Origin: a virus
Taxonomy: Duplodnaviria > Caudoviricetes
Strand: one strand, 5' to 3'
DNA: 64,000 nucleotides
Virus record (IMG/VR): IMGVR_UViG_3300025769_000099
Coordinates: 1,532-65,531 of that record
Shown here piece after piece: positions 3,001 through 45,161 of this stretch. Position 1 is the stretch's first letter. Every line of letters begins with the position of its first letter. Made by a program: the position numbers and the translations under genes. A model generated the notes under the pieces. It saw only the letters and a list, made by a program, of their open reading frames with translations, did not search any database and was not told where the DNA came from.

Positions 3001-5510
3001 CGGCTGGTGCTAAGTTTGATTTTAGTGAGTTTAGCAAGGTTGTTGACGGTGAAAAAGGTCCGTTAGCTGATCTTGCTTTAAAAAGACAAAATAAATTTGG
3101 ATCTGGTGATATATTTGTTTTAACAGCTAGACCACAAGAAGCTGCATATGCTATACACGCGTTTTTAAAAGGCATAGGTCTAAACATACCTATAGATAAT
3201 ATAACTGGCTTAGAAGACGGTAGACCAGAGGCTAAAGCTGATTGGATAATAGATAAAGTAAATCAAGGTTACAATAACTTTTATTTTGCTGATGATGCTA
3301 TTAAAAACATAAAAGCAGTAAAAGATGCTTTAAAAGATGTTGATGTCAAAGGTAGAGTTGAACTAGCGTTTAGCAAGTCAGAATTAGAAATAAAAATAAA
3401 CGAAATAATAGAACACCAGAGTGGCGTAAACAAAGATGCTACATATTCTAAAATAGTAGCTGAAAGAAAAGGTATGAACAAAGATAAGTATACTATGTTT
3501 TTACCTCCATCTGCAGAAGATTTTGAAGGTTTGTTATACTACTTAGCTGGTAAAGGTGAACAAGGTAGTAAAGATTTAGCTTGGCTACAAGACAACTTAT
3601 TTAAACCTTACTTAAAAGCTGTTGACGCTATTAATATAGCTAAAACATCTATAGTAACTAACTTTAGAAACTTAAACAAACAATACAAAGGTATCGGTAA
3701 GAAGTTAACAACATTAATGCCAGATGGCAACTTAACTTATGATCAAGGTATTAGAATATACATATGGAATAAACAAGGTCAAGAAATACCTGGTATATCT
3801 AAAAGAGATTTAAATGGTGTTTTAAAAGAAATAAATAAAGATCCAAGGTTAAAAGAATACGCTGATCAAATACAAATAGTAGGTGGTAATATAGATGGTG
3901 TTTATGCTCCGGCTAAAGATGGTTGGCAAATAGGTAGTATATTAGGTGATCTTGATAATTTATCTAATAAGGTAGGTAGAAAGTCATTTTTAAAAGACTG
4001 GATAGCAACAAAAGATGCTGTTTTTACTCCTGATGTTTTAACTAAAATAGAAGCTATTTATGGTACTAGATACGTTGAAGCTTTAAAGGATATATTGTGG
4101 AGAATGGAAAATGGTACTAACAGACCTAGTGGTGCTAATAGAGCTACAAACAGTTGGTTAAATTGGATAAACAACTCTGTAGGTACTATAATGTTCTTTA
4201 ACAGAAGATCAGCATTGTTACAAGGTATATCGTTTATCAACTTTATAAACTGGAACGATAACAACATGTTAAAAGCAGGTTTAGCATATGCTAACCAACC
4301 TCAGTTCTGGAAAGACTTTGCTATGATATGGAATTCACCTAAACTAAAACAAAGACGTAGAGGTTTAAAAACAGATTTACAATGGCAAGAAATAGCTAAT
4401 GCTGCTAAAAACTCTAAAGACAAGTTTAATGCCGCTGTATCTTGGTTGTTACAAGTAGGTTTTACACCTACACAACTTATGGATAATTTTGCTATTGCAG
4501 CGGGTGGTGCTCCTTTTTATAGAAATAGAGTTAAGACTTATGTTAAAGAAGGTATGACATTAAAAGAAGCTGAAGCAAAAGCATTTGATGATTTTTCTGA
4601 AATAGCTGAAAAGACACAGCAATCAGGTGATCCGGCCTTAGTATCTTCAGAACAAGCTAGTCAACTAGGTCGTTTGGTATTAGCCTTTCAAAACGTTACA
4701 CAACAGATGACTAGGTTAATGAAGAAATCAGGTACAATGCTAGTTAAAAGGCAAAAGTACCCTGGTCAAACTCAGTTTCAAAGTGATATGACAAACGTTA
4801 GTAAAATAATATACTACGGAGCTATACAAAACTTTATATTTACGTTTTTACAAAATGCCATGTTTGGTTTACTACCAGGTTTCGAAGGTGATGAAGTCGA
4901 TGACTATGAAAAGCAAATGATGAAAGAAAGTGAAAAAAGAGCTAGACAAGCTAATAACATGGTAGATACTTTATTAAGAGGATCTGGTTTAAAAGGTGCT
5001 GTATTATCTACCTTAAAAAATGTTATTATGCAATATCAAAAGCAAGAAGAAAAAGGTTTTAGAGCTGATCATGCATATACTTTAATTGAGCTAGCTAATA
5101 TATCACCACCAATAGGTTCTAAAGCTAGAAAACTCTATGGTGCACATCAAACTAAAAAGTTTAATCCAGATCTTTTAAAAGATAGAGGATTTGAAGTTTC
5201 AGCTGATGGTAGATTAAATTTAGCGCCTGCTTATGAAATAATAGGTAACTTAGCATCTGCTACATTAAACTTACCTCTAGATAGAGTTGTAAATGAAATC
5301 GAGTCTCTTGTAGAAGCTACTGATAATAGAAATGCAGCTTGGCAAAGAATAGCTTTAGCATTAGGTTGGAGAACTTGGGATGTAGGTGCTAAAAATGAAG
5401 AAGAAGATTTAATAAAAATAATCACCAAAGAATACAAGAAAGAATTAAAAAAATTAGAAAAGAAAACTAAATCTAAAAAATCTGATGCAGATTTACTAGA
5501 CTTGCTTTAA
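3..5510 (+). CDS. Giant multidomain putative virion-internal/ejected protein, 5'-truncated; contains a HAD-like phosphatase domain and a sigma-region-2-like segment
   Basis: ORF 27..5510 (1827 aa) stays open upstream to the window edge. HAD motifs VFDFDDTL, VLTAR and FADD are present, as is the segment FDPSKNDSMMAWVN. The C-terminus is helical. Confidence 0.7.
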   Translation, partial: GKDGKPDPMEVVINFMERIDEVDLNNNGQAGNLFSYWFGQETNKVLGKDINWKNTNDVVTFIKEMATKIKSGEFTRQDLEKFRKSEIIEKYSVDKKDIDKAANSESQAFDLVEQLWDKDTWNNLTEEQKIGVAQTAGLYLENYLKKRIGNIVSTEEGQDEKREIELLALVNKFTGLDTRKEDIKDSFAYKRGLINLIAGKPGKKSGFDPSKNDSMMAWVNTELGNRLLEVAQGSGKFGRFEKDIDAKSSDGAPAFQVASTDLSPDAMQLTSEEFNKTRQILEISETNPIYDKTLKVNTDAFLNLKDTKGKTKGKTVQELLTINPRRARTVMQEFAAKNLRADVTSIIGAQKSQKFKDFIRDEQKLQTLINLVAVKHRSSFPFFSNAEGTMNVEQAKANIRSDQGSFVSDVKAGNTIWTPIQLADMSKSEKVNFINEVEKAFVDGLVTKKFAKDGTVEYNGRETVHKSLKDALANELMLDATFTAMKLSPDFNTRFEGNLSIIAENIKRDPNVAFSESYTNAVYDGSVKKLADAVMKKGYDSVYDYKGNLKDDYKSFSDAAAEIVKSAHELAIIPDGKVAQFMTEFKRSGIFPKSLKKAFEQALTSKRPLKERMKYAIQAEILAKELGGQVIKVMTPNNDIVLLGFFNRALDPASKKIANVKERKDIQAQNKIRKQEGKELLPLPKIIYEGTGDFYKFQNGLKQDLKSITSDIPLDKNGKPIIDLSKVRLMNTKIPKGLFARINTLLNNPELNAEQKREIYERDFLQEVKDANINNKLLFKYIVRKLVDSKMSDLSKLQLLQFQTSAAEGLRALTGLKYITFTDTPIGTLKGEHLADNAGSMMEIAKLLFESKKLTDQEINNRIDEIAEYHDQWLENRAILDKLVDAFDTNNPFKDLRILTTKPIGRLGNIFAFDLRPAETLIKQRENDIRVKQEISKSKKATGILEMANSLSAPAKGISVFDFDDTLAKSNSKVGVTMPDGTTRKINATEFALESADLEAAGAKFDFSEFSKVVDGEKGPLADLALKRQNKFGSGDIFVLTARPQEAAYAIHAFLKGIGLNIPIDNITGLEDGRPEAKADWIIDKVNQGYNNFYFADDAIKNIKAVKDALKDVDVKGRVELAFSKSELEIKINEIIEHQSGVNKDATYSKIVAERKGMNKDKYTMFLPPSAEDFEGLLYYLAGKGEQGSKDLAWLQDNLFKPYLKAVDAINIAKTSIVTNFRNLNKQYKGIGKKLTTLMPDGNLTYDQGIRIYIWNKQGQEIPGISKRDLNGVLKEINKDPRLKEYADQIQIVGGNIDGVYAPAKDGWQIGSILGDLDNLSNKVGRKSFLKDWIATKDAVFTPDVLTKIEAIYGTRYVEALKDILWRMENGTNRPSGANRATNSWLNWINNSVGTIMFFNRRSALLQGISFINFINWNDNNMLKAGLAYANQPQFWKDFAMIWNSPKLKQRRRGLKTDLQWQEIANAAKNSKDKFNAAVSWLLQVGFTPTQLMDNFAIAAGGAPFYRNRVKTYVKEGMTLKEAEAKAFDDFSEIAEKTQQSGDPALVSSEQASQLGRLVLAFQNVTQQMTRLMKKSGTMLVKRQKYPGQTQFQSDMTNVSKIIYYGAIQNFIFTFLQNAMFGLLPGFEGDEVDDYEKQMMKESEKRARQANNMVDTLLRGSGLKGAVLSTLKNVIMQYQKQEEKGFRADHAYTLIELANISPPIGSKARKLYGAHQTKKFNPDLLKDRGFEVSADGRLNLAPAYEIIGNLASATLNLPLDRVVNEIESLVEATDNRNAAWQRIALALGWRTWDVGAKNEEEDLIKIITKEYKKELKKLEKKTKSKKSDADLLDLL

Positions 5511-7400: not shown

Positions 7401-7817
7401 ATGAGAAATTTAATTTTAATTTTAATTTTAATACCATTTATATCATACACTCAATCGGATGTTCCGGAAAAATACTGGTTAACTGATGATAATTTTGAAG
7501 ATGTAGTTTCTGGTAATTCTGCTTTTGGAGATGATGATGATCAAACTATTCTTATAGAGTTTTGGGCAGATTTTAATAAAGAAAATTGCTTTAACGAATG
7601 GGGAAAAGTAAAAGATGCTTTATACTATAGAGTAGATATTTCTAAAGCTCCAAATGCTAAAAAAGAATATAGAATACGTATGGCGCCAACTTTATTAATA
7701 TTTAAAGGTGGTGAGAAAGAAGCAACGTTTAAAGCTGGGTTAGACTTGTTGCTACCAACAAATCTTGATGAAATACAACAAACAATAAACGAAATTAACA
7801 CAGCAAGTAAATTTTAA
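7401..7817 (+). CDS. Secreted thioredoxin-fold protein lacking CxxC
   Basis: Signal peptide, then LTDDNFEDVV, ILIEFWADFNKENC, YRVDI and YRIRMAPTLLIFKGG, matching the Trx pattern. Confidence 0.65.
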   Translation: MRNLILILILIPFISYTQSDVPEKYWLTDDNFEDVVSGNSAFGDDDDQTILIEFWADFNKENCFNEWGKVKDALYYRVDISKAPNAKKEYRIRMAPTLLIFKGGEKEATFKAGLDLLLPTNLDEIQQTINEINTASKF

Positions 7818-7973: not shown

Positions 7974-8437
7974 AAAAAATAAGCAAACACGTATCGTATA
8001 AAGAAGGTACATACAGTTTAACAGCTAATAGGCTTGGTTTGCCAAATGATCCCTCTGATGAGCATTTAGCTAACATGGAGTTAGTTGCAGAAAAAGTGTT
8101 TGAACCTCTTAGAGAGCACGTAGGACATCCTATAAAGATTAATTCGTTTTATCGTGGACCTCAACTCAATAAAGCTATAGGCGGAAGTTTAACATCACAA
8201 CATTGTAAAGGCCAAGCGATTGATATAGATGATTCATATGGTAATGCTACTAATGCTTATATGTATGAATGGATCAAAGAAAACTTAGATTTTGATCAGA
8301 TGATATGGGAGTTTGGTACGGATGAAAACCCAGACTGGGTGCATGTAAGTTTTGTAAACGAAGGTGAGAATAGAAACAGATGTTTAAAAGCTTATAGAAA
8401 AGAAGGTTCAAGAAAAACCTATTATAAATTAAACTAA
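7970..8437 (+). CDS. Peptidase M15A family endolysin
   Basis: INSFYR, SQHCKGQAID (SxHxxGxAxD) and WVHVS zinc-peptidase motifs. Confidence 0.85.
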   Translation: MKKISKHVSYKEGTYSLTANRLGLPNDPSDEHLANMELVAEKVFEPLREHVGHPIKINSFYRGPQLNKAIGGSLTSQHCKGQAIDIDDSYGNATNAYMYEWIKENLDFDQMIWEFGTDENPDWVHVSFVNEGENRNRCLKAYRKEGSRKTYYKLN

Positions 8438-8443
8438 ATAAAT

Positions 8444-8851
8444 ATGAAATTATGGAAAATTGCCCTTTTTGTTCTGGCTGCTACTGTAAGTAGTTGCGGA
8501 ACGTACAACGTTAAACCTAAAATACAAATCACGCATGTCTTAGCTGTCACAGAACAAGGTGATACACTGAGGTTACCTATTAATATGATTAAACCAAACG
8601 TTTATTACAACGTTATATCATATCCTAATAGATATTATGGCGGTTGGTATAATAGCTATTATCAACCAGGATACTATAATAATAGACCTATATACGCTCC
8701 AAGCAGCGGTAGCTCAAGCAGTGGTAACAACAACAACAATAATAATAATAATAATAATAACATTAACAAACCTACACAAGTAAATGCTCCGCGCCCAACA
8801 CCTAGTGTTAATCCGCCAGCTACACCTGTTAATCCTATAAAAAATAGATAA
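8444..8851 (+). CDS. Lipoprotein with Asn/Pro-rich tail (possible spanin-like lysis protein)
   Basis: Hydrophobic leader ending in lipobox VSSC; next to the endolysin. Confidence 0.55.
   Translation: MKLWKIALFVLAATVSSCGTYNVKPKIQITHVLAVTEQGDTLRLPINMIKPNVYYNVISYPNRYYGGWYNSYYQPGYYNNRPIYAPSSGSSSSGNNNNNNNNNNNNINKPTQVNAPRPTPSVNPPATPVNPIKNR
8726..8768 (+). repeat. (AAC)n(AAT)n trinucleotide repeat encoding poly-Asn
   Basis: aacaacaacaacaataataataataataataataac read directly. Confidence 0.9.
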
Positions 8852-10281: not shown

Positions 10282-11115
10282 CTATCCTGATAATTTTTGT
10301 GATTGAGCTAGCCGCTGAGCTCGTGGCAGGATTTTTGATACCTTTGATTTTCTAGGAGCAGTCTTAGTTAACTTTTCACCTTTCATCCAATCATTATAAC
10401 TTATCTGATTATCTTTAAGATCACTAAGTATATGCCAATTAATATCTCCTCTTCTTTTTAAGAAATACATAAACTGTTGCTCTAACTCTGCATCATGAGC
10501 AGATCTAGTTAGTAAGTAAACTGGTAAATGCCAACTATGAGGTGCTGCATTGCTTTTAACACCACGTTTATCTTTACTTAAAACATTATCAACTTTTTTA
10601 GCAAAGAAATCAAAACCTATTAAGTTTAAGCTTTTATAGGTTTTTACTTTTTGCATAAACCAAAGTATAGTTAAAAACCCGGCGCTGGGTCTATATGACC
10701 TAGGATTTAACATATCTACATCAAACATATTCATTATATCAATTATTTCTTGATCTGTATACATCTGCGTATAAGGCATACCTATGGGTAAACGATCTTC
10801 TATTATCCAGTCGCTTAAACAGAAGTTTCCTCTACATCTGTTAAGTAATATCTTAACATCTTTAAATTTACCTCTTTCAAACCATTCACGTTTTGTATCG
10901 TAACATGGTGCTCTGAACTGACCTGTTACCCATATATCTACCTTAGTACCTATAGACTCTTCTTGGGCAGGTGTAGCTTGTATAGCTCTACCAAATCTAA
11001 CAACTATATCATAGCTGTTTATAGTGTCTTTAAGTTTATGATGCATTATTTCTACGGAATTACCGACAAATAATACTCTTTTATTTTTTACAAGCTCTTG
11101 TATGTCTTCAACCAT
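10282..11115 (-). CDS. GT29 (sialyltransferase)-like glycosyltransferase
   Basis: L-motif-like VLFVGNS..INSYDIVVRF..GTKVDI; S-motif-like PSAGFLTI..LIGFDFF; late H...E (HDAELE). Confidence 0.7.
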   Translation of the reverse strand: MVEDIQELVKNKRVLFVGNSVEIMHHKLKDTINSYDIVVRFGRAIQATPAQEESIGTKVDIWVTGQFRAPCYDTKREWFERGKFKDVKILLNRCRGNFCLSDWIIEDRLPIGMPYTQMYTDQEIIDIMNMFDVDMLNPRSYRPSAGFLTILWFMQKVKTYKSLNLIGFDFFAKKVDNVLSKDKRGVKSNAAPHSWHLPVYLLTRSAHDAELEQQFMYFLKRRGDINWHILSDLKDNQISYNDWMKGEKLTKTAPRKSKVSKILPRAQRLAQSQKLSG

Positions 11116-11744
11116 TCTTCTGATAATTCTGCATTTTTATATTCTTCAAACCATGGTCCTCCATTCGTGTAATGCAGAGCTCTTGCTTTCTTAGTATCGT
11201 AACCTTCGTGACCTACTAGACAATTATATCTTCTAGGTAAGTCTACTATTTGAGCATCGTTTATAAATTTAAATTCGTGTAATTGATCTGGTCTAGCGTT
11301 ATCTAAATATTCTTTACTTAATTTATTTTTAAAGAATTTGTTAGAAAAAACCATCAAAGAACTCCAGTTTTTCTTTGGATAAGTTTTATTAACAACGCCA
11401 TTCATTTTAATTTCACCGGCTTTGTAATCAGGGTGTTTTACAACACCTAAAGGTTCTTGGCCCATGTATCTACCAACTTCTCTAGGATCACATCTCCATA
11501 AGAAATCATTATCACAAAATAAAGCTTTACCCTCGTAATTACAAATTAACGGTACATAAAATCTTGTAAAAGAAAATTCTGTTGATTCACCTTCTACATC
11601 TTCTCTACCATAAAATCCTATTTCTTTTAATTTAGTCTTACATAGATAATCCACTTGACCATCAAAACCAGCATCTCTTATAGACTTAATGCATGTTTTT
11701 GTAGCTTCTGGAAATCTAGAGTCATGTCCTACAAATATTCTCAT
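11088..11744 (-). CDS. GT-A (GT8-like) glycosyltransferase
   Basis: IFVGHDSR, STEFSFTRF, DxD (FCDND), KNWSSLMVF, YNCLVG and LHYTNGGPW. Confidence 0.75.
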   Translation of the reverse strand: MRIFVGHDSRFPEATKTCIKSIRDAGFDGQVDYLCKTKLKEIGFYGREDVEGESTEFSFTRFYVPLICNYEGKALFCDNDFLWRCDPREVGRYMGQEPLGVVKHPDYKAGEIKMNGVVNKTYPKKNWSSLMVFSNKFFKNKLSKEYLDNARPDQLHEFKFINDAQIVDLPRRYNCLVGHEGYDTKKARALHYTNGGPWFEEYKNAELSEEWLKTYKSL

Positions 11745-11777: not shown

Positions 11778-12122
11778 TTAAGATTTTGAACCTGATGTTC
11801 TTCTGTTTATATCATCATGGTTAAATTCAGCCCAGTATAATTCAAACGCAACACCATCTTCTAATCCTTCAAACTGATGGAATTTACCAGGTTTAACCAT
11901 AGTAAAATCACCAGCTTCAAGTATTGTTTCATCAACTAATCCCTGATCGTCTTGCCAAACCCTTATTATCATCTTACCAGACTCAACAAAAAATCCGTTC
12001 CATTTAAATTTATGTTCATGCTCTGAACATTTGAATCCTTTATTATATTCTATTCTGTGAAACTCTAGTACACCATTTTTGTGTACCATTTCGGTTTTAC
12101 CCCATACTTTTCCTGCTTTCAT
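11778..12122 (-). CDS. Cupin-domain protein (sugar isomerase-like)
   Basis: KVWG, SEHEH, FFVESG and VKPGKFHQF cupin motifs. Confidence 0.75.
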   Translation of the reverse strand: MKAGKVWGKTEMVHKNGVLEFHRIEYNKGFKCSEHEHKFKWNGFFVESGKMIIRVWQDDQGLVDETILEAGDFTMVKPGKFHQFEGLEDGVAFELYWAEFNHDDINRRTSGSKS

Positions 12123-12928
12123 TATTTTTGATTGTGTTTAAAATAAGGTCTTTTCCAAGTCTGTGAAGTCATTGGAAACCTTCTGTTAATAACTACCTTT
12201 TTTGTTTTTGTCACTGTTGGATTAAGATTCCACCATTTTTCCCTAACATTTTGTTTTATAGATGTTATCTTAAATTTATCTAAAGACTGTTCTTTTTTAT
12301 TTTTAAAATGAATACTACATAGTATTCTAGGGCCAACAGTATCTACTTTGTGAAACTGATATTGTGGTATGTATAGCAAATCACCAGCATCTAGTACAAA
12401 CTCATCTATAATTGTTTTAGGTTTATCTGGCGCAAACTCTTTATATATAGTCCATTTAACCTTACCTTCTTGATGAAACAAAAAGTTTTCTGTTTTATCA
12501 CAATGAGCAGGAAAGCTTTTTGATCCTTTACTTGGCGAAGCATATACGTTGCATTGACCATGACCAAAATATCTTTCAAACTCAAAACACATATCTACTA
12601 ATTTTTTACTAGAGTACTCAGCAAAAGGAATTACTATACTTTTACCTTTCCACCATAAATCTACTATCTTACTCTTTTTAAAGAAGGGTTGTTTTAGTGC
12701 TTTGTGTTTATCTAAACACCATCTGTCACCTTTGTCATCATAATCTAATATCTGTAAACCTTTGATGTGTGGATATTTATTTACGTGACTAGATAAATCT
12801 TCCCACGTGTAGAGATCTTTAAATTTATTTCTTCTAAGTATTAAATGTTTTTTACCCCAATACTTTGAAAAAAATAAACTTTTGCCTACTGGATCTAGTA
12901 TCTCTTCTAATGTTATTTGTTTTTTCAT
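12122..12928 (-). CDS. JmjC/Cupin_4 (YcfD/ROX-like) 2OG-Fe(II) oxygenase
   Basis: NVYASP, FPAHCD (HxD), QEGKVKW and GDLLYIP...FHKV. Confidence 0.8.
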   Translation of the reverse strand: MKKQITLEEILDPVGKSLFFSKYWGKKHLILRRNKFKDLYTWEDLSSHVNKYPHIKGLQILDYDDKGDRWCLDKHKALKQPFFKKSKIVDLWWKGKSIVIPFAEYSSKKLVDMCFEFERYFGHGQCNVYASPSKGSKSFPAHCDKTENFLFHQEGKVKWTIYKEFAPDKPKTIIDEFVLDAGDLLYIPQYQFHKVDTVGPRILCSIHFKNKKEQSLDKFKITSIKQNVREKWWNLNPTVTKTKKVVINRRFPMTSQTWKRPYFKHNQK

Positions 12929-12932
12929 ATTT

Positions 12933-14654
12933 TTATCCGTCGCAGCTTAAACAGTTTGGATCCATTGCTTGCTTAGCTATATCACCTCTAAGAACTGATT
13001 CAGTTCTCATATAATATAGAGTTTTAACACCTTTCTTCCACGCGTCTAGATGAACCTTGTTTATAAACTTAGGTTCTGCTTCTGAAGGAAATGCTAAATT
13101 TAAGCTAACAGATTGATCAACATACTGTTGTCTAATACCTGCTTGATTAATTAGTTCTAATTGATTTATTTCTTTGAAAGTTCTGAAGACTTCTTTGAGC
13201 GGTATATCGTGATCGCCCAATGTAATCTTCTCTAATGCTTTTACGCCCTGCACCGAGCCCCCGTCCTTTAAGATTTGGTCCCATATTTTTTTATTGTTTA
13301 AATTGTTTTCTTCTAATACTTTTTCAAGAGTTGGATTTTTACGTATGAACGTACCTTTTGCAGACTGGTCTGTGAATACATTAGCAGCCCAAGGCTCAAT
13401 TCCAGGACTAATATTCCCAGATAACTTACTATTACTAACAGTAGGAGCAATAGCTCTAAGATGAGTGTTCCTAAATCCTGTACCAACGCACCATAACGGT
13501 TCGTTAAACGCTTCAGCCAAAGCCATACTAGCTCTTTCCGATTCAATTTTAATTTGACTAAAAATTCTTCTTGTTTCATATTGTGATAATAAACCTTCAA
13601 AAGGTAATCCTTTTTGTTGTAAGTATGTATGCCATCCAACCACGCCTAAACCTAGTGCTCTACCTTTTTCAGCAGATCTTACTGAGTTTTCAAACCCTCT
13701 TCTATTTTTTGCTTTTTGTATAAACTCTTCTAATACACCATCTAAAAACCATATACTATCATATATTAAGTTACTGTTTTTCCACTCGTGATATTTAGCT
13801 AGGTTTAAACTAGATAAACAACAAATAAAACTATGATTTTCATCTGTATGTAATGTAATCTCAGAACATATGTTTGTCATATGAACTTTTAAAGCATTAT
13901 CCTTATAAGCTGAAGGGTTATTCTTATTAACATTACCTTTAAACATTATATAAGGTTCTCCTGTAGCTTTACGTTTTTGTAACAGCTTACCCCATTTACG
14001 CCTAGAAACCTTATCTCCATCTCTAAGCTTTCTCATAAACTTATCGCCAACTACAGCACATTGATGTAGGTTAAGTGATTGTCTATTCACATCTCCTTTA
14101 GGTTCTCTTATTTCTAACCAGTCTTCAAAATCAGCATGTTCAATATTTATATTAACAGAGGCAGCACCTCTTCTAACTGATCCTTGGTTTGTTGCTAGTA
14201 TTGTAGAGTCATATATTTTACAGAAAGGCACAACACCATCTGATGTTCCATTACCTGTTATATTTGCACCTGCTGGTCTAATTTGATTTATACCTATACC
14301 AACACCTCCACCGTGTTTAGCTAACAGCATCATCTCTAAATTCTTTTGACCTATGTCAATTATACTATCAGCAACATCAATACCAAAACAACTTATTGGA
14401 AAACCTTTATCAGTACCAGTGTTACTAAGCACAGGACTAGCAAGACAGAGCCAACCTTTCCAGATGTAATCAAAAAAGACTTCTTCCATTTCTTTTTTCT
14501 GTAATCTATTCGCAACTGTCTTAGCAACTCTTCTGTACGCTTGTCTTGGTGTTTCATCTTCTAATAAATATCCTCCTTGTATTGTTTTTTTATATACGTC
14601 GGACTCTGCCCAACTTGGGTAGTCTATACCCTTTTTCCATCTATTGCTCCACAT
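12933..14654 (-). CDS. nrdA: Ribonucleotide reductase class I alpha subunit (no ATP cone)
   Basis: ISCF, TNICSEI (NxCxE), AIAPT, KTLYY and C-terminal CLSC. Confidence 0.95.
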   Translation of the reverse strand: MWSNRWKKGIDYPSWAESDVYKKTIQGGYLLEDETPRQAYRRVAKTVANRLQKKEMEEVFFDYIWKGWLCLASPVLSNTGTDKGFPISCFGIDVADSIIDIGQKNLEMMLLAKHGGGVGIGINQIRPAGANITGNGTSDGVVPFCKIYDSTILATNQGSVRRGAASVNINIEHADFEDWLEIREPKGDVNRQSLNLHQCAVVGDKFMRKLRDGDKVSRRKWGKLLQKRKATGEPYIMFKGNVNKNNPSAYKDNALKVHMTNICSEITLHTDENHSFICCLSSLNLAKYHEWKNSNLIYDSIWFLDGVLEEFIQKAKNRRGFENSVRSAEKGRALGLGVVGWHTYLQQKGLPFEGLLSQYETRRIFSQIKIESERASMALAEAFNEPLWCVGTGFRNTHLRAIAPTVSNSKLSGNISPGIEPWAANVFTDQSAKGTFIRKNPTLEKVLEENNLNNKKIWDQILKDGGSVQGVKALEKITLGDHDIPLKEVFRTFKEINQLELINQAGIRQQYVDQSVSLNLAFPSEAEPKFINKVHLDAWKKGVKTLYYMRTESVLRGDIAKQAMDPNCLSCDG

Positions 14655-14655
14655 A

Positions 14656-14907
14656 TTATGTTATTAAGTGTTTTATCCATGCAATTAAACCATTAAGATT
14701 TAACGCTACTAAATTCCATTGTTTTCTTGATCCTGTCTGTACCATAACACAAATAAAACCTATTATATATAACCAAGGTTCTAATGTCCATTGTGCAGCT
14801 ACTAGAAAGCCAGCACCCATATATCCAATACGGGTTGCCATCCTTTCTAATACTGTTAACTGTCTTTTTCTTTCGACAAGAAACTTTTTAAATTTATAAC
14901 TTACCAT
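14656..14907 (-). CDS. Small multi-pass membrane protein between nrdB and nrdA
   Basis: Hydrophobic segments; fills the gap with overlapping start and stop. Confidence 0.55.
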   Translation of the reverse strand: MVSYKFKKFLVERKRQLTVLERMATRIGYMGAGFLVAAQWTLEPWLYIIGFICVMVQTGSRKQWNLVALNLNGLIAWIKHLIT

Positions 14908-15869
14908 ACGTCTTCAAAATCTTCTCCTTCATTTGCCTTACTATAGTCAGTTGACCTAATCGCGAAAAAATCAGTGTGGGTATGACCCCCAGTAAGATGA
15001 TAGAACCAATCCAAATTACCCGCTGCTTCTTCGTCATATGAGAAGTACGATCCGAGATCCACGTAACCAAGTTCTTGTAATTTTTCATTAGTTCTTTTTC
15101 TTATAAATTGTTTTAGGTCATAAGACTTTATACCATCTATATCACCCATTTCAAACATCTTTTCTATATACTTCTCTTCTAACTCAACCATTATCTTAGC
15201 TGCATCTACAATATCATCTCTACAGTCTTCTAATAAGCTTTTATCTTCCTCGCACATGTGTCTAAATAATTGACAACCCATACGGCTATGTAAAGACTCA
15301 TCTCTGACTGACCATTTCATTTGTTGGCCAATACCTTTAAGTAAATTACGTAGCTGAAAGCTATACAAAACGGCAAAAGCAGAGTATAAAGAAACTCCTT
15401 CTGCGAAAGCAGAAAAAACAGCCAATGACTTTGCGATACCTCTTTTATCGTTGCCATCATATGCAACGAGGTTATCAAAACGCTCAGCCGTAGCTGGTTC
15501 ATGAAGAAACGCTTCATAATCTTCTAATTTTAATGTTTCATTTAAATAGCTATAAGCTACAGCGTGTACAGTTTCCTGTGAGCCAAACATCATAGCCATT
15601 TGTTGTATCTCATGTTTAGGAAACCAAGATACAACCTTCTGAGTCCAGTAATCACTTACCGCACATTCAGTCTGAGCAAAACCTAGCAGGATATTTCCCA
15701 CTAGGTGTTTCTCTTTAACAGTTAAAGACTCATTCCAGTCCTTAACATCTCCACTCATAGGTATTTCGGTATGTAACCAAAATGCTTGAGCTTGTTTTAG
15801 CCAACCTTCTGTATAGTACTCAGGGTACTCAAAAGGTTTATATGCAATACGTTCATCGAATAGTCCCAT
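14901..15869 (-). CDS. nrdB: Ribonucleotide reductase class I beta subunit
   Basis: FWLHTEI, ETVHAVAY, AEGVSLYSAF and RDESLH. Confidence 0.95.
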   Translation of the reverse strand: MGLFDERIAYKPFEYPEYYTEGWLKQAQAFWLHTEIPMSGDVKDWNESLTVKEKHLVGNILLGFAQTECAVSDYWTQKVVSWFPKHEIQQMAMMFGSQETVHAVAYSYLNETLKLEDYEAFLHEPATAERFDNLVAYDGNDKRGIAKSLAVFSAFAEGVSLYSAFAVLYSFQLRNLLKGIGQQMKWSVRDESLHSRMGCQLFRHMCEEDKSLLEDCRDDIVDAAKIMVELEEKYIEKMFEMGDIDGIKSYDLKQFIRKRTNEKLQELGYVDLGSYFSYDEEAAGNLDWFYHLTGGHTHTDFFAIRSTDYSKANEGEDFEDVW

Positions 15870-15870
15870 A

Positions 15871-16011
15871 TTAATTATATAAAGTTAAACAAATATCAAA
15901 TATACCAACGTATAAAACGTGATCTATTTTATTCCCATCCGGATAACTTCTGTATCCAAATAATATTCCATTGAATAAGCCAAAGCTTAATTCCCAATTA
16001 TTTTCCTCCAT
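15871..16011 (-). CDS. Small hypothetical protein (46 aa)
   Basis: Read manually: MEENNWELSFGLFNGILFGYRSY...; fills the intergenic gap. Confidence 0.5.
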   Translation of the reverse strand: MEENNWELSFGLFNGILFGYRSYPDGNKIDHVLYVGIFDICLTLYN

Positions 16012-16456
16012 CTGATTTTTTTATTAGTTCTACAGTCATATCACATTCTTTTTGATTTTGAGGTTTGTAAAGGGTAAAAGGTCCTATTCTATCATTTGCC
16101 ATTAGCCTTTTAAATAATTTCCATCTCATTGGAAAAGACTCGTTAGCTCTACCTTTTGTTTCAATTATAAAACCTTTGCCTATAAAATCAGGCGTGTATT
16201 TTATATTTAAAATCTTTTTATTACCTCTATTTTTATAATCACCTTTACCATTGCCACATCTTTCATATGCTTCAAAAGGAAAGTCAAAACTCTCTACTAA
16301 CTCGAATGTTTGCCCCTCGTAAAGAGCTTTGATCTTAGCCTTTTTTAATGCCATATACATATAGCGCTCTAAACCTGACGCAAAAGTAATACCGTCGTAT
16401 GTTATTTTTCGCGATTGTACAGGACCTCTTTTTTTCTTCTTATAAAACTTCTTCAT
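15998..16456 (-). CDS. PD-(D/E)xK endonuclease (T7 endonuclease I-like resolvase)
   Basis: FASGLE and YTPDF...IIETKG. Confidence 0.75.
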   Translation of the reverse strand: MKKFYKKKKRGPVQSRKITYDGITFASGLERYMYMALKKAKIKALYEGQTFELVESFDFPFEAYERCGNGKGDYKNRGNKKILNIKYTPDFIGKGFIIETKGRANESFPMRWKLFKRLMANDRIGPFTLYKPQNQKECDMTVELIKKSDGGK

Positions 16457-16751
16457 CGTTTACTTGTATATCATAATGTAAACCGTCGTTTCCATTTTGT
16501 CCTATGATATTGATTCTATTAAGCATTGCCTCTTCTATCTCATCACCTAAACATCTTTTAGCTGATTCTAGATACAACAAAGCATCCATTAATTCTTCTT
16601 GTACGTCAACGATAAATCTATTAAGATCTTTCTTCTGGCCTTCAATTTCTTGCATCATCGTAGCTCCATATTTTTTTTGGCCAATTAAACTACGTTCGTC
16701 CATTTTAGCTAAAACAGATTGAACTATTTTATCTTTTGTTTTAATTTTCAT
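16440..16751 (-). CDS. Small all-alpha NTP-pyrophosphatase-like protein
   Basis: RSLIGQKKYG...QEELMDALLY pattern; next to MazG. Confidence 0.45.
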   Translation of the reverse strand: MKIKTKDKIVQSVLAKMDERSLIGQKKYGATMMQEIEGQKKDLNRFIVDVQEELMDALLYLESAKRCLGDEIEEAMLNRINIIGQNGNDGLHYDIQVNDEEVL

Positions 16752-17547
16752 CTTTTACAAATGTTCCGTTAATCATCTTGCCGGTTCTTTTACTTATGAC
16801 ATCATACGCTGTTGCTATACATGCCTCAATCTTAACACCTTCTAAATGTGCTAAGTTTGTAAGTACTACTACCATATCACCAATAGCGTCTATAACTTCT
16901 GGCTTATCGTTTTTTAATAAAGCTTTTGCAAGTTCTCCAGCTTCTTCTTGTAGTTTAACATATTGTGTGTGTGAATTACCCTGTTGGTATAATCCTCTTA
17001 CCAGTGCCCACTTTCTAATTTTATCAAATACATTTGATTTACTAGTAGCTTCCTCACTGTGTAACATTTCATGAACAACTGCGTGCTCATATTCAATAGG
17101 GTTTTTTTGAAAGTTTGACATAGCTTTGTTATATACATAGCTTCTGTCATTATTAAACATCGAGGTTTTAACGTTTTTCATTATCCAATTAACTAAGTCT
17201 AATGTTAATTTAAAATCCCCATGTTCTGTTTTCCATGTCATACCAATGTTATCCATTAGTTGTCCTTTAAGTTTATTGACTGGACAAGGAAAAGTCGTGG
17301 TTTGTTCGGTCACGTTTATCTTCATATTCTTATTTGGTTTAAGGTTTCTATAAGGTACTAGATCTACTCTGTACCCATACTCTCTCTGTCTTTCAAGCTC
17401 TAAACAAGATATATAATCTATATCATCTGATGTTTCTAATATCTCATATTCATCAGGACCATATCCTTGTTGTATTGTGACCCGGTTATTAAGATCACAG
17501 GTAACACCGATCTTTTTACCCGGTATATGATATAAATAATACGTCAT
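16741..17547 (-). CDS. mazG: MazG-like NTP pyrophosphohydrolase with an extra N-terminal (GIY-YIG-like) domain
   Basis: KLQEEAGEL..DAIGD and KRTGKMINGTFVK; N-terminus YYLYHIPGKKIGVT. Confidence 0.8.
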   Translation of the reverse strand: MTYYLYHIPGKKIGVTCDLNNRVTIQQGYGPDEYEILETSDDIDYISCLELERQREYGYRVDLVPYRNLKPNKNMKINVTEQTTTFPCPVNKLKGQLMDNIGMTWKTEHGDFKLTLDLVNWIMKNVKTSMFNNDRSYVYNKAMSNFQKNPIEYEHAVVHEMLHSEEATSKSNVFDKIRKWALVRGLYQQGNSHTQYVKLQEEAGELAKALLKNDKPEVIDAIGDMVVVLTNLAHLEGVKIEACIATAYDVISKRTGKMINGTFVKDEN

Positions 17548-18185
17548 AATTTATCGTTGTATAAATGCATGTTATGTGCATGATGATAATACCATCCGAC
17601 GTCAATAGACAGTCTCTCTGCAATCATTTGTTGTAATGATGAAAATTGATACTGATCGTTACAGAAACCGTACCAGATGTCATTAGAACGCATATACACA
17701 GACATACAAAGTTTGTTGTTAATTATTGTAAACTGTATTGCATATGTACAAGGAGTATCTTTACGATACTTTTCATATTCTTTACAGTCATATATACTAA
17801 TAGCAGCGTGTCTAGTATTAGGATTATCTCTTAGTTTAGCCACTACATAATCTATTTGATTATTACGTTGCCATTGATAACCGTAATTACTATTTACTTC
17901 TCTATCGCTATTAGCCATCTTTTCCCATATAGGTGGAACCTTACCGTATAACTCACCTAGTTTGTCTATACTAGGATCACCCGATAAGTACCATTGCCAT
18001 TCAGCTTCTGCATATTCATGAGACCATTTTCTATACTTGTTTTTAATATGATTGTCTAATGGATCTTCTATTGTGAAGCCTACATTAAACAAAGCTTTAG
18101 TATTATCAAAGTCTACACCTTCTACTCTTAACTCGTGTAGTATGCAGTTGAATGCTTCGTTAGCATTTAAAAATTTAGTTCGCAT
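17544..18185 (-). CDS. Thymidylate-synthase-fold enzyme with dCMP-type signature (dCMP hydroxymethylase/methylase-like)
   Basis: NYG, DTPCT and MRSNDIWYGFCND, with Asp at the ThyA Asn177 position. Start taken at MRTKF (the track gives 18245). Confidence 0.75.
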   Translation of the reverse strand: MRTKFLNANEAFNCILHELRVEGVDFDNTKALFNVGFTIEDPLDNHIKNKYRKWSHEYAEAEWQWYLSGDPSIDKLGELYGKVPPIWEKMANSDREVNSNYGYQWQRNNQIDYVVAKLRDNPNTRHAAISIYDCKEYEKYRKDTPCTYAIQFTIINNKLCMSVYMRSNDIWYGFCNDQYQFSSLQQMIAERLSIDVGWYYHHAHNMHLYNDKL

Positions 18186-18417
18186 ATTTTTTATAATAAT
18201 ATAATTGATATTCTGATATTTTTTGCCATATAACTCCAGGTCCAAAAGACTCAGGTGATGTACCTATTCTAACTCTGTTAGGCCAAACACCTTTTTCTAC
18301 ATCTACTAGCCATTTACTTTCACCCCATTTTTCTTGCCTAGGTGATATACATATATTGTTTCTATTACACCAAAGCATAGCTTCATTTTCTTCAGGAGTT
18401 CTTGTGTGTGAACCCAT
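18175..18417 (-). CDS. Hypothetical protein
   Basis: ORF; likely start at MGSHTRT. Confidence 0.5.
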   Translation of the reverse strand: MGSHTRTPEENEAMLWCNRNNICISPRQEKWGESKWLVDVEKGVWPNRVRIGTSPESFGPGVIWQKISEYQLYYYKKYAN

Positions 18418-18430
18418 TGTTATTCCTTTT

Positions 18431-20155
18431 TTACTCCCACGGTAATGCGCTGCCGCCATCTTCTTCGTCTATTACATTAACTTGTGGTACAAATGAACCT
18501 GATCTATGTTCCCATGTAAAAAACGATTCAGCACCGTTTTCACCTAGGTTTTGAAACTTACATTTTAATACTTTTACTTTAGTATTTTTAGCTTCATAAT
18601 CTCTATGTACTAATAAACCGTGGTAACTAGCATCATACCACTCACCACCACCTTTTATATTATACATCGTAGGTTCTTCTATTTTACCGTCTTGGCCTTT
18701 ATACATTTTAGTTGGATGTGCTACTATAAATGTTAAAACATCATACTTTTTACAAAAGGCTTCTATCTTTGCTAGATAGTCCATAGTATATCTGTTCACA
18801 TCATCTGAAACTGCATTTGTATCTCTAACCTTATTAAACGGATCAATAACTAAACATTTAATACCTTTACGTTTAACTAGCTCAGCACCTTTTTTCAATA
18901 CTGATTCTAGGCTATATTTATCCATGTCTATAAAATAATAGTTGTCATTTACATGATCTGAAACTTCTTTCCATTTACCATTACCTATATCGCTAGGAGA
19001 TGGCATATCACCCCATGTTTTACGCATGAGCTTATGTGCATGTAGGTATATGGGTGCATTTTCAGGACTAGCAAAAGCTGTCTTCCAACCATATTGTTTA
19101 TTATAACCTACTACCATCTGATCAACGAAGTCAGACTTTCCGCTACTAGGTATCCCAGTAACAGTGATAAACTGCCCAGTATAAGTACTAAAAACATCAT
19201 CAAAATTAGATAACCCAATTTGGAACCCAGGTTTGAAACCATTTTTAACAAAGTCTTTAAGTTCATTTTCTATATTTTTAAGAGTTGTTACATTTTCTAA
19301 AGGTACTGGTGTTGATGCGTGTATAGCAGAACGTAAAGCATCTTTACCGTGATTTAATAAATATTCGTTAGCATCTTTACAGTCTACAAAATCTATTAAA
19401 AAACAATTTTCTGCTCCTAACCTACGTATAAACTCTTGTTTAAGCATATTGCCAGGCTCGTCAGCATCTACAGCTAGAATTATCTTTTCTTTGTCTTCGA
19501 AATAATCTATACAGTTATCGAGATAATCTAAATTATTGTGGTTTAACGTAGCACCGTTTGGTACTGATATTACGTTAGGCACACCTGCCTCGTGTAGAGC
19601 TAGCACGTCCATTTCACCTTCAACTATAACACAGCTGTTATGACCTACAATACTATTAATATTATAAAATACTTTTTCAGCTCCTTTATATAGTTTAAAG
19701 TTTTTACGTCCATCTCTATATTTTACATTGATAAGTTGATTACCTACGTAATAGTTAAATTTTATTGTATTCTCAGTCTTACCTGTCTGTGGCATAAACT
19801 CAGGACCCTCACCGACATCTAAGTCAATAAGAGTCTTCTGAGATATACCTCGAGACTTAAACCAATCAACAACTTTACTACTCGGTACCGTAGGCTCTTG
19901 AGCTACGGGGCGAACATATTCACGATCGCTATTACCTTTACGTTGATACGTGTGTAGTTGAAAAGTTGAATCACAGTTGTGACAAGTACCGAGACCACGT
20001 TCCCAATCATAAGAAGCACATTTCTTCTTCTTATTCTCAGGTTTTCTTGTGTGTGAGCAAACAGGGCATGTGCCTTGTGTTTTCCCTACTTCAAGATTAT
20101 GTTGATTGAACTTGTCAATCTTAAACCCATTGATCTCTATTTCTTCTACTTGCAT
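18431..20155 (-). CDS. Bifunctional DNA primase-helicase (T7 gp4/Twinkle-like)
   Basis: Zn-binding CPVC..CHNC; TOPRIM IVEGEMD and DADEPG; Walker A GIPSSGKS; VIDP. Confidence 0.92.
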   Translation of the reverse strand: MQVEEIEINGFKIDKFNQHNLEVGKTQGTCPVCSHTRKPENKKKKCASYDWERGLGTCHNCDSTFQLHTYQRKGNSDREYVRPVAQEPTVPSSKVVDWFKSRGISQKTLIDLDVGEGPEFMPQTGKTENTIKFNYYVGNQLINVKYRDGRKNFKLYKGAEKVFYNINSIVGHNSCVIVEGEMDVLALHEAGVPNVISVPNGATLNHNNLDYLDNCIDYFEDKEKIILAVDADEPGNMLKQEFIRRLGAENCFLIDFVDCKDANEYLLNHGKDALRSAIHASTPVPLENVTTLKNIENELKDFVKNGFKPGFQIGLSNFDDVFSTYTGQFITVTGIPSSGKSDFVDQMVVGYNKQYGWKTAFASPENAPIYLHAHKLMRKTWGDMPSPSDIGNGKWKEVSDHVNDNYYFIDMDKYSLESVLKKGAELVKRKGIKCLVIDPFNKVRDTNAVSDDVNRYTMDYLAKIEAFCKKYDVLTFIVAHPTKMYKGQDGKIEEPTMYNIKGGGEWYDASYHGLLVHRDYEAKNTKVKVLKCKFQNLGENGAESFFTWEHRSGSFVPQVNVIDEEDGGSALPWE

Positions 20156-22170: not shown

Positions 22171-22938
22171 CTACAGATAATCAAGCACTTGCGAGTGATC
22201 TACATTATCAATTAATTTTGTTACAGCTTGCTTTTTTAACTGTGAAACTCTAACATAAGAGCTAGATCCTTCGATCTTTAATTCTGCTGCAATTTGTTTT
22301 GCTGAATACTTATCACAGTCTAGGCCATAGCTTAATCTAAGTACCTCATACTCTTTATTGTTTAAATACTTTCTCATTAAACCTTTTAAATATGTATTTA
22401 GTAATTGCATGTTGTATGGTTCAGATTTATCTGGTATTTGATAAGCAGAATCATCGTCTTGATTAGGTTTATCATCTATGCTTAAGAATATAGAATTAAA
22501 AAACATTGATACCATCTTTTTATCTTTACCAAAGTTTCTACGTATTTCATTAAGCTTATGCTCAGGTATTCTCATGTCACCACGATTAATATCTATTGCT
22601 CTACGTATTTGACCTTTTATTCTTTTTGAGAAAAAAGATTTTAGTGTTTTTTCTTGATCTTCTGATTCATCTAACATTGAATAGTCTAATCTGTCTACAG
22701 CTTTAGTCAAACCTGAATTACCTTCTTGTATTAAATCCATTATAGTCATTACACCACTAGCTTGTTGAGTAGTGGAAAATTTTCTTGATAGATTCTCAAC
22801 TAAAGGAGCAAAACAGATTATCATTTGCTCTCTGTTGTATATTGTAAAATCACCGTCTGTAACTTCAGGCAACTTACTTATTTTAAGCTCTATATCTTTT
22901 TTCCACCGGATATAGTTAGCTATGTTATAACTCTTCAT
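22171..22938 (-). CDS. Phage sigma-70-family factor
   Basis: Region 2 DLIQEGNSGLTKAVD; MRIP; region 4 VLRLSYGL...IAAEL...VRVSQLKKQA. Confidence 0.85.
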   Translation of the reverse strand: MKSYNIANYIRWKKDIELKISKLPEVTDGDFTIYNREQMIICFAPLVENLSRKFSTTQQASGVMTIMDLIQEGNSGLTKAVDRLDYSMLDESEDQEKTLKSFFSKRIKGQIRRAIDINRGDMRIPEHKLNEIRRNFGKDKKMVSMFFNSIFLSIDDKPNQDDDSAYQIPDKSEPYNMQLLNTYLKGLMRKYLNNKEYEVLRLSYGLDCDKYSAKQIAAELKIEGSSSYVRVSQLKKQAVTKLIDNVDHSQVLDYL

Positions 22939-32935: not shown

Positions 32936-33170
32936 TTATTATATAGTAGTAGAAAAAATCAAATCCGAGCCTAAAAAGGTTGCAGGTTTGTTGATAAAAG
33001 ACGAAGAAAGTAGATATTCTAAAGGAAAAGTCATCACAATAGGTAATTTAGTACAAGGAGTGTGTGATAATGATATAGTACACTATGATAAACATACAGG
33101 CCATGACATTAGCTGGCAAGATAATGATTATCAAGTGATCACTATAAAGGACGTAGTCTTGGTAGAATGA
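32922..33170 (+). CDS. groES: Co-chaperonin GroES
   Basis: YIVVEK..AGLLI..KGKVITIG..DIVHYDK; adjacent to groEL. Confidence 0.8.
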   Translation: MRAVNYYIVVEKIKSEPKKVAGLLIKDEESRYSKGKVITIGNLVQGVCDNDIVHYDKHTGHDISWQDNDYQVITIKDVVLVE

Positions 33171-41609: not shown

Positions 41610-41610
41610 T

Positions 41611-44959: not shown

Positions 44960-45161
44960 AATAAGCGTAGGTAGAGATTATAAAAACGAAGCAATGCATT
45001 ACTCCGTAGGCCAAGATGTTTACGGAGGACATGTCATTTCTGATATAATCGAAGAAGATGATAAGTATAAGATACTTATTAAGAAAGGTGATGAAATATT
45101 ACCATGGAAAGATTTTAATAAGAATATGGCTATAGCTGTTGAATATAATTTAGAATATTAG
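44940..45161 (+). CDS. Hypothetical protein
   Basis: ORF: LIRKISVGRDYKNEAMHYSVGQ. Confidence 0.6.
   Translation: MKNLIRKISVGRDYKNEAMHYSVGQDVYGGHVISDIIEEDDKYKILIKKGDEILPWKDFNKNMAIAVEYNLEY

Follow-up and report, generated by a model that had tools for sequence, protein, structure and literature searches.

A likely deoxycytidylate hydroxymethylase gene in a conserved replication array of uncultured tailed phages

The DNA considered here, which we call the window, is a stretch of 64,000 nucleotides comprising bases 1532-65531 of the 65,531-base IMG/VR record IMGVR_UViG_3300025769_000099. Its minus strand carries a gene of the thymidylate synthase (TS) family, hereafter the query, set among overlapping genes for replication and nucleotide metabolism (Table 1). 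An earlier note on this DNA had proposed that the gene bears the aspartate typical of family members acting on deoxycytidylate (dCMP) rather than deoxyuridylate (dUMP), and that the phage genome may contain modified cytosine, either 5-hydroxymethylcytosine (5hmC) or 5-methylcytosine (5mC). The residue is indeed encoded, and a dCMP hydroxymethylase is the likely identity of the gene product.

The TS-family gene and its array

The mechanically called open reading frame (ORF) spans 17544..18245 (-) and extends to a TTG codon at 18245. Most likely the true start is the ATG at 18185, which would give a protein of 213 amino acids (aa), because 213 aa is the prevailing length among the 120 best relatives, which mostly match from that residue on and cover 91% of the longer ORF, and because the upstream 94-aa ORF (orf94) ends in an overlap with this ATG. 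The span highlighted in the earlier note, 16440-18185, comprises three overlapping genes: a 103-aa ORF (orf103), a 268-aa MazG-fusion ORF and the TS-like ORF. The start of the MazG fusion overlaps the TS stop as ATGA, in an operon-like packing, and the conserved order of the array is erf, exonuclease, orf103b, primase-helicase, (orf94), TS, MazG fusion, orf103, DUF1064, nrdB, orf83, nrdA. Locus comparisons used the best 80 of 397 related IMG/VR stretches (71-99% identity). MazG follows the TS gene in 79/80 of these loci and orf103 is present in 76/80; the 80 loci form a single lineage, and this conservation reflects selection on the genes, not independent linkage.

The motif MRSNDIWYGFCND ends in Asp177, which aligns with Asp179 of T4 gp42 and Asn177 of Escherichia coli ThyA. 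We aligned 13 sequences, namely the query, T4 gp42, SPO1 gp29, ViI, phiW-14, XP12, E. coli ThyA and six added phage homologues (two genes of BF486P2, and those of VPE25, ATCCB, an Agathobaculum phage and an uncultured siphovirus). The reference motifs given in the earlier note hold in this alignment, where ThyA reads RSCDVFLGLPFN and T4 gp42 reads RSNDVVFGFRND, and the column does track dCMP versus dUMP as had been claimed, separating the 13 sequences according to the substrate known or annotated for each. Asp occupies it in nine of them (T4 gp42, XP12, the query and the six added phage homologues) and Asn in the other four (E. coli ThyA and the dUMP hydroxymethylases SPO1 gp29, ViI and phiW-14).

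A HMMER scan of 1.84 billion cluster representatives returned 8048 proteins at E 0.001 or better. The best 150 of these 8048 were used, and leaving out 31 shorter than 195 aa gave 119. The specificity column is Asp in 119/119 of these nearest 50%-identity cluster representatives of at least 195 aa and in 80/80 orthologous IMG/VR loci, so Asp177 is no chance variant; the longer string RSND[ILV]WYGFCND is likewise preserved in 80/80 loci.

Table 1. Features of the array and of the neighbouring cluster (window coordinates).
Feature	Position	Strand	Basis or remark
GT29-like	10282-11115	-	atlas feature lead; Pfam GT29 E 0.015, below cut-off
GT8-like	11088-11744	-	atlas feature lead
Cupin	11778-12122	-	Pfam
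JmjC_2 oxygenase	12122-12928	-	Pfam
Ribonucleotide reductase large subunit	12933-14654	-	PHROG 84, 7.9e-146
83-aa ORF between ribonucleotide reductase subunits	within 12933..15869	-	
Ribonucleotide reductase small subunit	14901-15869	-	PHROG 86, 1.2e-67
DUF1064/Holliday-junction-resolvase-like, end of array	15998..16456	-	PF06356 2.5e-08, PHROG 190 1.1e-12
103-aa conserved helical protein (orf103)	16440..16751	-	invariant KYG and QEELMDA..Y in alignment
268-aa MazG/PRA-PH fusion, candidate dCTPase	16741..17547	-	PF01503 2.7e-07, PF03819 5.6e-05
TS-family gene, 213 aa	17544..18185	-	PF00303, E 6.6e-26
Motif MRSNDIWYGFCND	17655-17693	-	translation; final codon 17655-17657 = Asp177, base-specificity residue
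D143-T-P-C146: catalytic Cys, Asp three residues before it	17748..17759	-	coordinates computed from residue numbers
94-aa ORF (orf94), function not assigned	18175..18459	-	between primase-helicase and TS gene
Primase-helicase, upstream slot boundary	18431..20155	-	PHROG 239, 5.2e-82

Enzyme class and known relatives

The query scored 91.5 bits against PF00303 (cut-off 24.3; 95.6 bits in the genome scan) and missed every ThyA equivalog cut-off of NCBIfam, the best of these giving 80.9 bits against a required 327. Among solved relatives, the CMP (cytidylate) hydroxymethylase MilA ranked first (3.3e-21), followed by T4 dCMP hydroxymethylase (2.3e-17) and thymidylate synthases (6.4e-15 and weaker). 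Residues C146, R166, S167, D169, H207, Y209, Y101 (the Tyr94 equivalent) and W65 are invariant in the 13-sequence alignment, and E62 (the Glu58 equivalent) is nearly so.

A signature of hydroxymethylation has been described by Park et al. 2019 (PMC6400193), who list an acidic residue, Asp or Glu, at the third position ahead of the catalytic Cys (Cys-3), where TS has Leu; Ser or Thr two residues ahead of a conserved Tyr (S94-x-Y96 in T4); and absence of the TS C-terminal tail, the lid which closes the active site for hydride transfer. All three are found in the query. Its Cys-3 residue is Asp, as in 127/132 rows of the larger alignment described below, against Leu in E. coli ThyA and Asn in XP12. 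Its S99-N-Y101, within NSNYG, is identical to T4, where E. coli has P-V-Y; the first position of S-x-Y is Ser in 86/132 rows and Gly in 41/132. Four residues follow H-x-Y, as in 73/80 orthologues, compared with 28 in T4, 55 in E. coli and 61 in XP12. The same paper reports that D145N kills the activity of the T4 enzyme and that D179N cuts its kcat ~3600-fold, and it quotes A176S and K133R as switching MilA's preferred substrate from CMP to dCMP. At these two positions the query has Ser167 and Arg125, as do dCMP and dUMP enzymes, in place of the MilA-type Ala in R-A-x-D and Lys at the first phosphate Arg. Nor does it show the marks of a canonical ThyA (Asn177, Leu143, the C-terminal lid and an equivalog score). 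As to the features of an XP12-type dCMP methyltransferase, a list taken from our own comparison of XP12 with T4 and not from a published definition, Asp177 is present, but the lid is gone and Cys-3 is acidic.

The phylogeny agrees with these residues. A tree of 132 rows (the 119 representatives and the 13 named sequences), built with IQ-TREE in 'quick' mode under LG+G4 with SH-aLRT as its sole support measure, contains a 99% branch dividing E. coli ThyA and XP12 from the remaining 130 rows. The latter hold T4 gp42, VPE25 with ATCCB, the query, and a nested Asn-bearing clade of SPO1, ViI and phiW-14. The query thus groups with the pyrimidine hydroxymethylases and away from E. coli ThyA and XP12, and within a 22-row clade (99%) of mostly short-tailed proteins that includes Bacteroides phage BF486P2.

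T4 gp42 (PDB 1B49/1B5D/6A9A) shares with the query the TS fold family, the catalytic Cys, the specificity Asp, the Asp at Cys-3, NSNYG, RSND, H-x-Y and the missing lid. It differs in sequence (26% identity), in its longer tail, and in its second phosphate Arg, which is His in the query. Furthermore, the window's genome has no recognised gp1-like kinase, gp56 homologue by sequence, T4-type alpha- or beta-glucosyltransferase, or polymerase. The TS homologue of XP12, a dCMP methyltransferase, shares the specificity Asp and pre-replicative action on dCMP, and the XP12 genome is reported to carry 5mC (PMC7653180). However, it keeps the TS tail and has Asn at Cys-3, it groups with E. coli ThyA, and its gene, unlike the window's, adjoins genes for dihydrofolate reductase (DHFR) and dCMP deaminase.

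The closest protein in the phage collection is WAX06796 of BF486P2 (44.7% identity), annotated as a deoxycytidylate 5-hydroxymethyltransferase. It shares the CND motif, a short tail (17 aa) and the 22-row clade, and differs in phage and genome context, BF486P2 having a second Asp-bearing TS homologue and dut. Our literature search found no paper naming this protein, and we treat its annotation as putative. In BF486P2, a cultured gut phage, the two Asp-bearing homologues (L002:5168-5929 and 8001-8681) lie ~2 kb apart with dut between them; both are annotated as dCMP hydroxymethyltransferases, and the first is very divergent (end-branch length 2.5). A related observation concerns Agathobaculum phage AB434P2, whose homologue (L017:3838-4500) is annotated as a deoxyuridylate hydroxymethyltransferase, yet has Asp at both the specificity position and Cys-3; this annotation may name the wrong base. 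The homologues of VPE25 (Enterococcus) and ATCCB (Lactobacillus) are 35-37% identical to the query (VPE25 35%) and share the specificity Asp, but they carry C-terminal extensions of 59-75 aa, belong to another clade and have a T4-type beta-glucosyltransferase gene nearby: directly downstream in ATCCB, and in VPE25 beyond one intervening dUTPase gene. VPE25 also encodes its own polymerase, unlike the window's phage, and its DNA is reported to resist bisulfite conversion (PMC4999554).

A broader precedent is the MetaGPA study (eLife 2021, PMC8670742), in which modified-cytosine phage DNA was enzymatically selected from sewage and a coastal sample. The study reports TS as the Pfam domain most strongly associated with modified-cytosine contigs, with position 177 occupied by Asp in the modified contigs and by Asn in the unmodified, and describes its co-occurrence with PRA-PH (PF01503), dCMP deaminase and carbamoyltransferase, with DNA ligase a further core member. 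The window shares the TS domain with Asp177, PRA-PH (PF01503), a ligase and the coastal-virome type of habitat. The published association, however, is statistical and names no lineage, and it includes a carbamoyltransferase route for which no gene was seen in the window's genome. The Asp177 TS homologue as a marker of cytosine-modified phage DNA is therefore already published (PMC8670742), and the present phage is a further uncultured example. Among flavobacterial phages, a literature search by title and abstract returned no described 5hmC or dCMP hydroxymethylase for this lineage.

The MazG fusion, slot exchange and restriction sites

The 268-aa neighbour exceeds the Pfam cut-offs for both PF01503 (31.3 bits against 21.3) and PF03819 (23.8 against 22), both families are matched in 25/25 of its orthologues, and it has a PDB profile match to 1vmg at 5.8e-08. 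The matching region is C-terminal, at about aa 170-254. In an AlphaFold model (mean pLDDT 74), residues 167-254 gave VIA Z scores of 8-10 to PRA-PH/MazG chains, and residues 169-268 gave 9.9, 9.6 and 9.1 to 1yvw, 2yxh and 1vmg. By profile and predicted fold, then, the protein contains a MazG/PRA-PH nucleoside triphosphate pyrophosphatase domain, and the MazG-like neighbour of the earlier note is upheld. The domain also matches the fold of the S-2L MazG-like enzyme (7ODY) and of DCTPP1 (Foldseek prob 1.00, TM to target 0.6-0.7; VIA Z 8.6), but sequence identity is 17-20% and the window protein has ~165 extra N-terminal residues. In cyanophage S-2L this enzyme provides a deoxynucleoside monophosphate (dNMP) for base replacement, and the preferred substrate of mammalian DCTPP1 is dCTP. 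When the T4 genome was scanned with the fusion protein no match emerged, which says nothing either way on homology to gp56.

The N-terminal part of the fusion (16741-17250 (-), residues 1-165) is itself highly conserved, with an invariant Y..YHIPGKKIGVT..L..RV and a strand-strand-helix-strand-helix order in the model. It gave weak matches to T5orf172/MUG113, which we take to belong to the GIY-YIG clan, in 3/25 orthologues; the Foldseek and VIA rows for the fusion were taken up by the MazG domain. As for the 103-aa ORF, described in the earlier note as all-alpha and pyrophosphatase-like, the first half of the description stands, its model being helical (mean pLDDT 61.7), while Pfam and PDB gave no likeness to a pyrophosphatase: no Pfam family was found at 0.01 or better and no PDB profile match below E 0.1.

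The slot between orf94 and the MazG fusion is not always filled by the same enzyme. We also compared a second set of 80 loci, fetched around relatives of the GT8-like gene. The fetched stretch contained a TS-family ORF in 28 of them and none in the other 52, those of at least 11 kb without a TS ORF stopping short of the slot. Ten of the 28 are of the window's type and 18 carry a protein of 277 aa (or similar) in the identical slot (e.g. L108:3466-4299 (+), L119:3-653 (+) and 16 more), although several of the 28 loci are near-duplicates and the counts are not independent. The 277-aa protein is closer to E. coli ThyA (42% identity) than to the window's enzyme (28%). Its Cys-3 residue is Leu (LPPCH), it contains GPVYGKQWR and ends in a C-terminal tail like that of TS, and at the ThyA string LGLPFN it reads LGLPYD. 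The Asp, LPPCH and the tail recur in all 120 best database relatives of this protein. By the same criteria that we applied to the query, the sister enzyme is predicted to be an XP12-like dCMP methyltransferase, a type which the window's enzyme does not resemble.

All 28 slot enzymes have Asp and none Asn (0/28), which argues for a commitment of the entire lineage to dCMP as the substrate of this enzyme. In a primase-helicase tree of 69 rows (61 hydroxymethylase-type including the query, and 8 other), the second type is confined to one side of a single 99% branch, so one exchange suffices to explain the two slot types. The MazG fusion is retained with both, which fits a role upstream of either reaction, that is, in dCMP supply.

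Restriction sites provide a further line of evidence (Table 2). We compared observed palindrome counts with Markov expectations in the window and in two TS-less relatives, MW202828 (42 kb fetched) and elemoF (50 kb fetched). Four-base palindromes containing C are mostly at expectation in the window and purged in the two relatives, while GATATC is purged in the window. Pools of partial loci, hand-picked to skip near-copies (6/10 hydroxymethylase-type, 9/18 methyltransferase-type), resemble the window, with observed/expected counts for the two types respectively of 277/265 and 363/405 for GATC, 29/33 and 107/105 for CCGG, and 0/29 and 4/47 for GATATC. According to Flodman et al. 2020 (PMC7653180), 5hmC DNA (T4gt) resists 186/227 Type II enzymes, among them MboI/DpnII, MspI/HpaII, HaeIII, HhaI and NlaIII (Table S1 of that paper). 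The same source has EcoRV cutting 5hmC DNA (T4gt) completely and glucosylated T4 DNA 'very partially'. The site pattern of the window is as expected of a 5hmC genome, an agreement that we take as suggestive only.

Table 2. Palindrome counts, observed/expected, in the window and two TS-less relatives.
Site	Window	MW202828	elemoF
GATC	191/192	0/126	36/146
CCGG	40/36	0/21	0/10
GGCC	33/30	not purged	0/22
GCGC	39/38	not purged	13/20
CGCG	25/22	not purged	0/11
CATG	137/184	161/192	0/124
GATATC	0/16	15/16	2/22

Predicted pathway, alternatives and phage context

We consider it likely that the TS-family gene encodes a dCMP hydroxymethylase whose product ends as 5hmC in the phage DNA. In the mechanism that we propose, Cys146 would attack C6 of dCMP, Asp177 would read and protonate the cytosine N3, and methylene-tetrahydrofolate would give the one-carbon unit. 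The exocyclic methylene intermediate would then be hydrated and not reduced, because the TS lid is missing and Asp143 together with Ser99-x-Tyr101 could hold a water molecule, yielding 5-hydroxymethyl-dCMP and tetrahydrofolate. Once phosphorylated, the modified nucleotide would take the place of C in the phage DNA and shield most C-containing restriction sites, an anti-restriction strategy of a known type. The translationally coupled MazG/PRA-PH pyrophosphatase most plausibly converts dCTP to dCMP, which would both supply substrate and deplete the canonical nucleotide, beside a phage ribonucleotide reductase. The earlier proposal of a modified-cytosine genome is thus supported by the residue signatures, the tree, the MetaGPA association and the restriction-site pattern, and its choice between 5hmC and 5mC narrows, for the window's phage, to 5hmC because of the hydroxymethylase signatures, the missing tail and the placement in the tree.

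Several alternatives deserve consideration. Asp177 would suit an XP12-like dCMP methyltransferase, and DNA with 5mC and no 5hmC, equally well: the TS mutants N177D and N229D methylate dCMP (cited in PMC8670742), and in the sister phages the slot is filled by an Asp-bearing enzyme on a TS scaffold. For the window's own enzyme we nevertheless find this quite improbable in view of its acidic Cys-3, a position at which substitution abolishes the T4 activity, the loss of the entire lid needed to seal the site for hydride transfer, its grouping with hydroxymethylases, and a genome in which no DHFR gene was found by Pfam. An ordinary nucleotide-supply enzyme, either a dUMP-directed TS or a dUMP hydroxymethylase in which the Asp is inconsequential, would accord with the label 'thymidylate synthase' given to the protein by public sources, and a 67% A+T genome would profit from a source of dTMP, ThyX being absent from the 65.5-kb record and the gene at 17544-18185 being the only TS-family member there. 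This is very unlikely indeed, given that in the alignment Asn is found in each of the four dUMP enzymes and Asp in every dCMP enzyme, that the score is far under every ThyA equivalog cut-off, and that D179N is so damaging to the T4 enzyme (PMC6400193). MilA-like action on the ribonucleotide CMP, for a purpose other than DNA modification, draws on the rank of MilA as best-scoring solved relative; with Ser and Arg at the two MilA-specific positions and a gene context of phage replication and deoxynucleotide supply, it is scarcely credible.

Further derivatisation of the base is a separate matter. The earlier note had suggested glycosylation by nearby glycosyltransferases (GTs), and two adjacent GT-like genes do lie 6-8 kb from the TS gene, next to cupin and JmjC_2 genes (PF08007 1.8e-15 and PF07883 1.8e-07 in that part of the cluster). 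The idea has a precedent, since a preprint (10.1101/2023.12.21.572611) describes phage GT-A enzymes, some family-8-like, that build or extend glycans on the 5hmC of DNA, and also IMG/VR contigs in which GT-A and ThyS genes lie close together. In addition, the GT8-like and JmjC genes are missing from both TS-less relatives, although two such distant genomes cannot tell linkage from ancestry. The GT assignments themselves are leads: the protein-atlas feature scores (0.96 and 0.99) point to viral clusters partly carrying GT29 (borne by 16-73% of members across the three leading clusters) or GT8 (12-14%) and are no tests of GT identity, neither 10282-11115 nor 11088-11744 has a significant GT family in Pfam or PHROGs, the GT29 match at E 0.015 being the sole one, and the GT8-like protein has no PDB sequence match. 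Moreover, the GT pair, cupin and JmjC genes are retained (~60-65% identity) in the methyltransferase-type sisters, whose enzyme would provide no hydroxyl group as a glycosylation site; among solved structures the JmjC protein is nearest to the ribosomal-protein hydroxylases MINA53/NO66; and the GATATC purge fits plain 5hmC somewhat better, given the reported EcoRV preferences (PMC7653180). A role of the cluster in protein hydroxylation and glycosylation is as plausible as one in DNA modification. We therefore rate a required role of the GTs in modification as unlikely, and a glycosylated or hypermodified 5hmC made through these two genes as rather unlikely; what stands of the suggestion is the presence of the GT-like genes.

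A more speculative extension treats cytosine modification as a swappable cassette whose slot can be filled by a dCMP hydroxymethylase without the lid or by the TS-scaffold Asp enzyme read as a dCMP methyltransferase. In its boldest form both routes would converge on one hypermodified base, with JmjC/cupin proteins oxidising 5mC, GT-A-like transferases glycosylating 5hmC, and host kinases and replisome handling the nucleotide. We regard this as improbable.

A number of observations weigh against a dCMP hydroxymethylase leading to 5hmC in DNA. Within the protein, the partner-subunit phosphate Arg pair (R123/R124 in T4) is represented by R125, its second member (R127 in E. coli) being His; SPO1, ViI and two more of the homologues have Gln at this second position. 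In the tree, the methyltransferase side consists of two references only, and the joining of XP12 and E. coli is flagged as long branches meeting, T4 gp42 being likewise a long branch. The MazG fusion is no more than a candidate dCTPase, and the TS-MazG pairing is not exclusive: MazG-like genes alone are not diagnostic of modification because elemoF has a stand-alone PRA-PH gene without any TS gene. The restriction contrast is drawn from two TS-less relatives with other habitats, hosts and restriction systems, and the window is mildly depleted in CATG (137/184) and TGCA (181/213) though 5hmC blocks NlaIII.

The gene complement raises similar concerns. PHROGs and Pfam recognised no DNA polymerase in the whole genome, nor any dCMP deaminase or DHFR, and a Walker-A scan of the genome found no dNMP kinase, the strings located being in the primase-helicase, in a 375-aa late-region ORF without a family match and at three chance-looking sites. 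T4 requires gp1 to handle hydroxymethyl-dCMP. An annotated polymerase is also missing from the elemo relative, and the lineage therefore seems to rely on the host replisome, which together with host kinases would have to accept the modified nucleotide. Finally, residues, fold family, gene order, conservation and restriction-site statistics were computed directly, while the enzyme's substrate and product, what MazG does, the entry of the nucleotide into DNA and how much C it replaces are predictions made from them.

If the prediction of 5hmC is true, an abundant marine phage group swaps cytosine for 5hmC, or for 5mC in its sister phages. Such DNA would resist many restriction enzymes and some library chemistries, so that these phages may be miscounted, and modification-dependent nucleases would target them in the marine phage-host arms race. 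The minimal lid-less hydroxymethylase and its methyltransferase-type counterpart in one slot would also form a natural pair for studying what makes one such enzyme hydrate its intermediate and the other transfer a hydride. Next to the published principle, we count the exchange in the slot and the contrast in restriction sites as modest additions.

The source record (65.5 kb) is rated complete by CheckV, and the 1.5 kb beyond the window just extends a giant first ORF. PHROGs identified a tailed-phage gene set (terminase, portal, structural proteins, endolysin, holin and GroEL/GroES) together with ribonucleotide reductase, primase-helicase, Erf, exonuclease and ligase; the last four and the DUF1064 resolvase-like protein are the replication genes recognised. 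The G+C content of the window is ~33%. Its nearest large terminase in the phage collection belongs to an uncultured podovirus from a spring (62% identity), followed by those of Flavobacterium 'elemo' phages (44%) and then of Cellulophaga, Tenacibaculum and Maribacter phages, which makes a member of the Flavobacteriia the probable host. Near-identical DNA occurs in metagenome runs of at least eight studies, as assembled contigs and Illumina reads, data types blind to base modification, and a megablast of the locus against the phage collection gave no match.

Some features of the wider genome may be recorded. A sigma-factor-like gene lies at 22171-22938 and a thioredoxin gene at 7401-7817. Phage GroEL and GroES genes and a second PHROG annotated as GroES, the last adjoining the terminase, lie in 31364-33170 (+) and 45161-45766 (+) and are common to elemo relatives. 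Two giant ORFs are present: one at 27-5510 (+) which, with record bases 1-1531, exceeds 2300 aa, runs off the record start and has no family, and one at 56267-62740 (+) of 2157 aa, which matches a virion structural protein. The ORFs of 880, 187 and 709 aa at 38416-43740 (+) lie in strongly negative GC skew (-0.26, -0.28), unlike that of other plus-strand genes. Neither Pfam nor PHROGs assigned them a family, except for a weak methyltransferase match (E 7e-4) to the 187-aa ORF, and the segment may be an acquired module.

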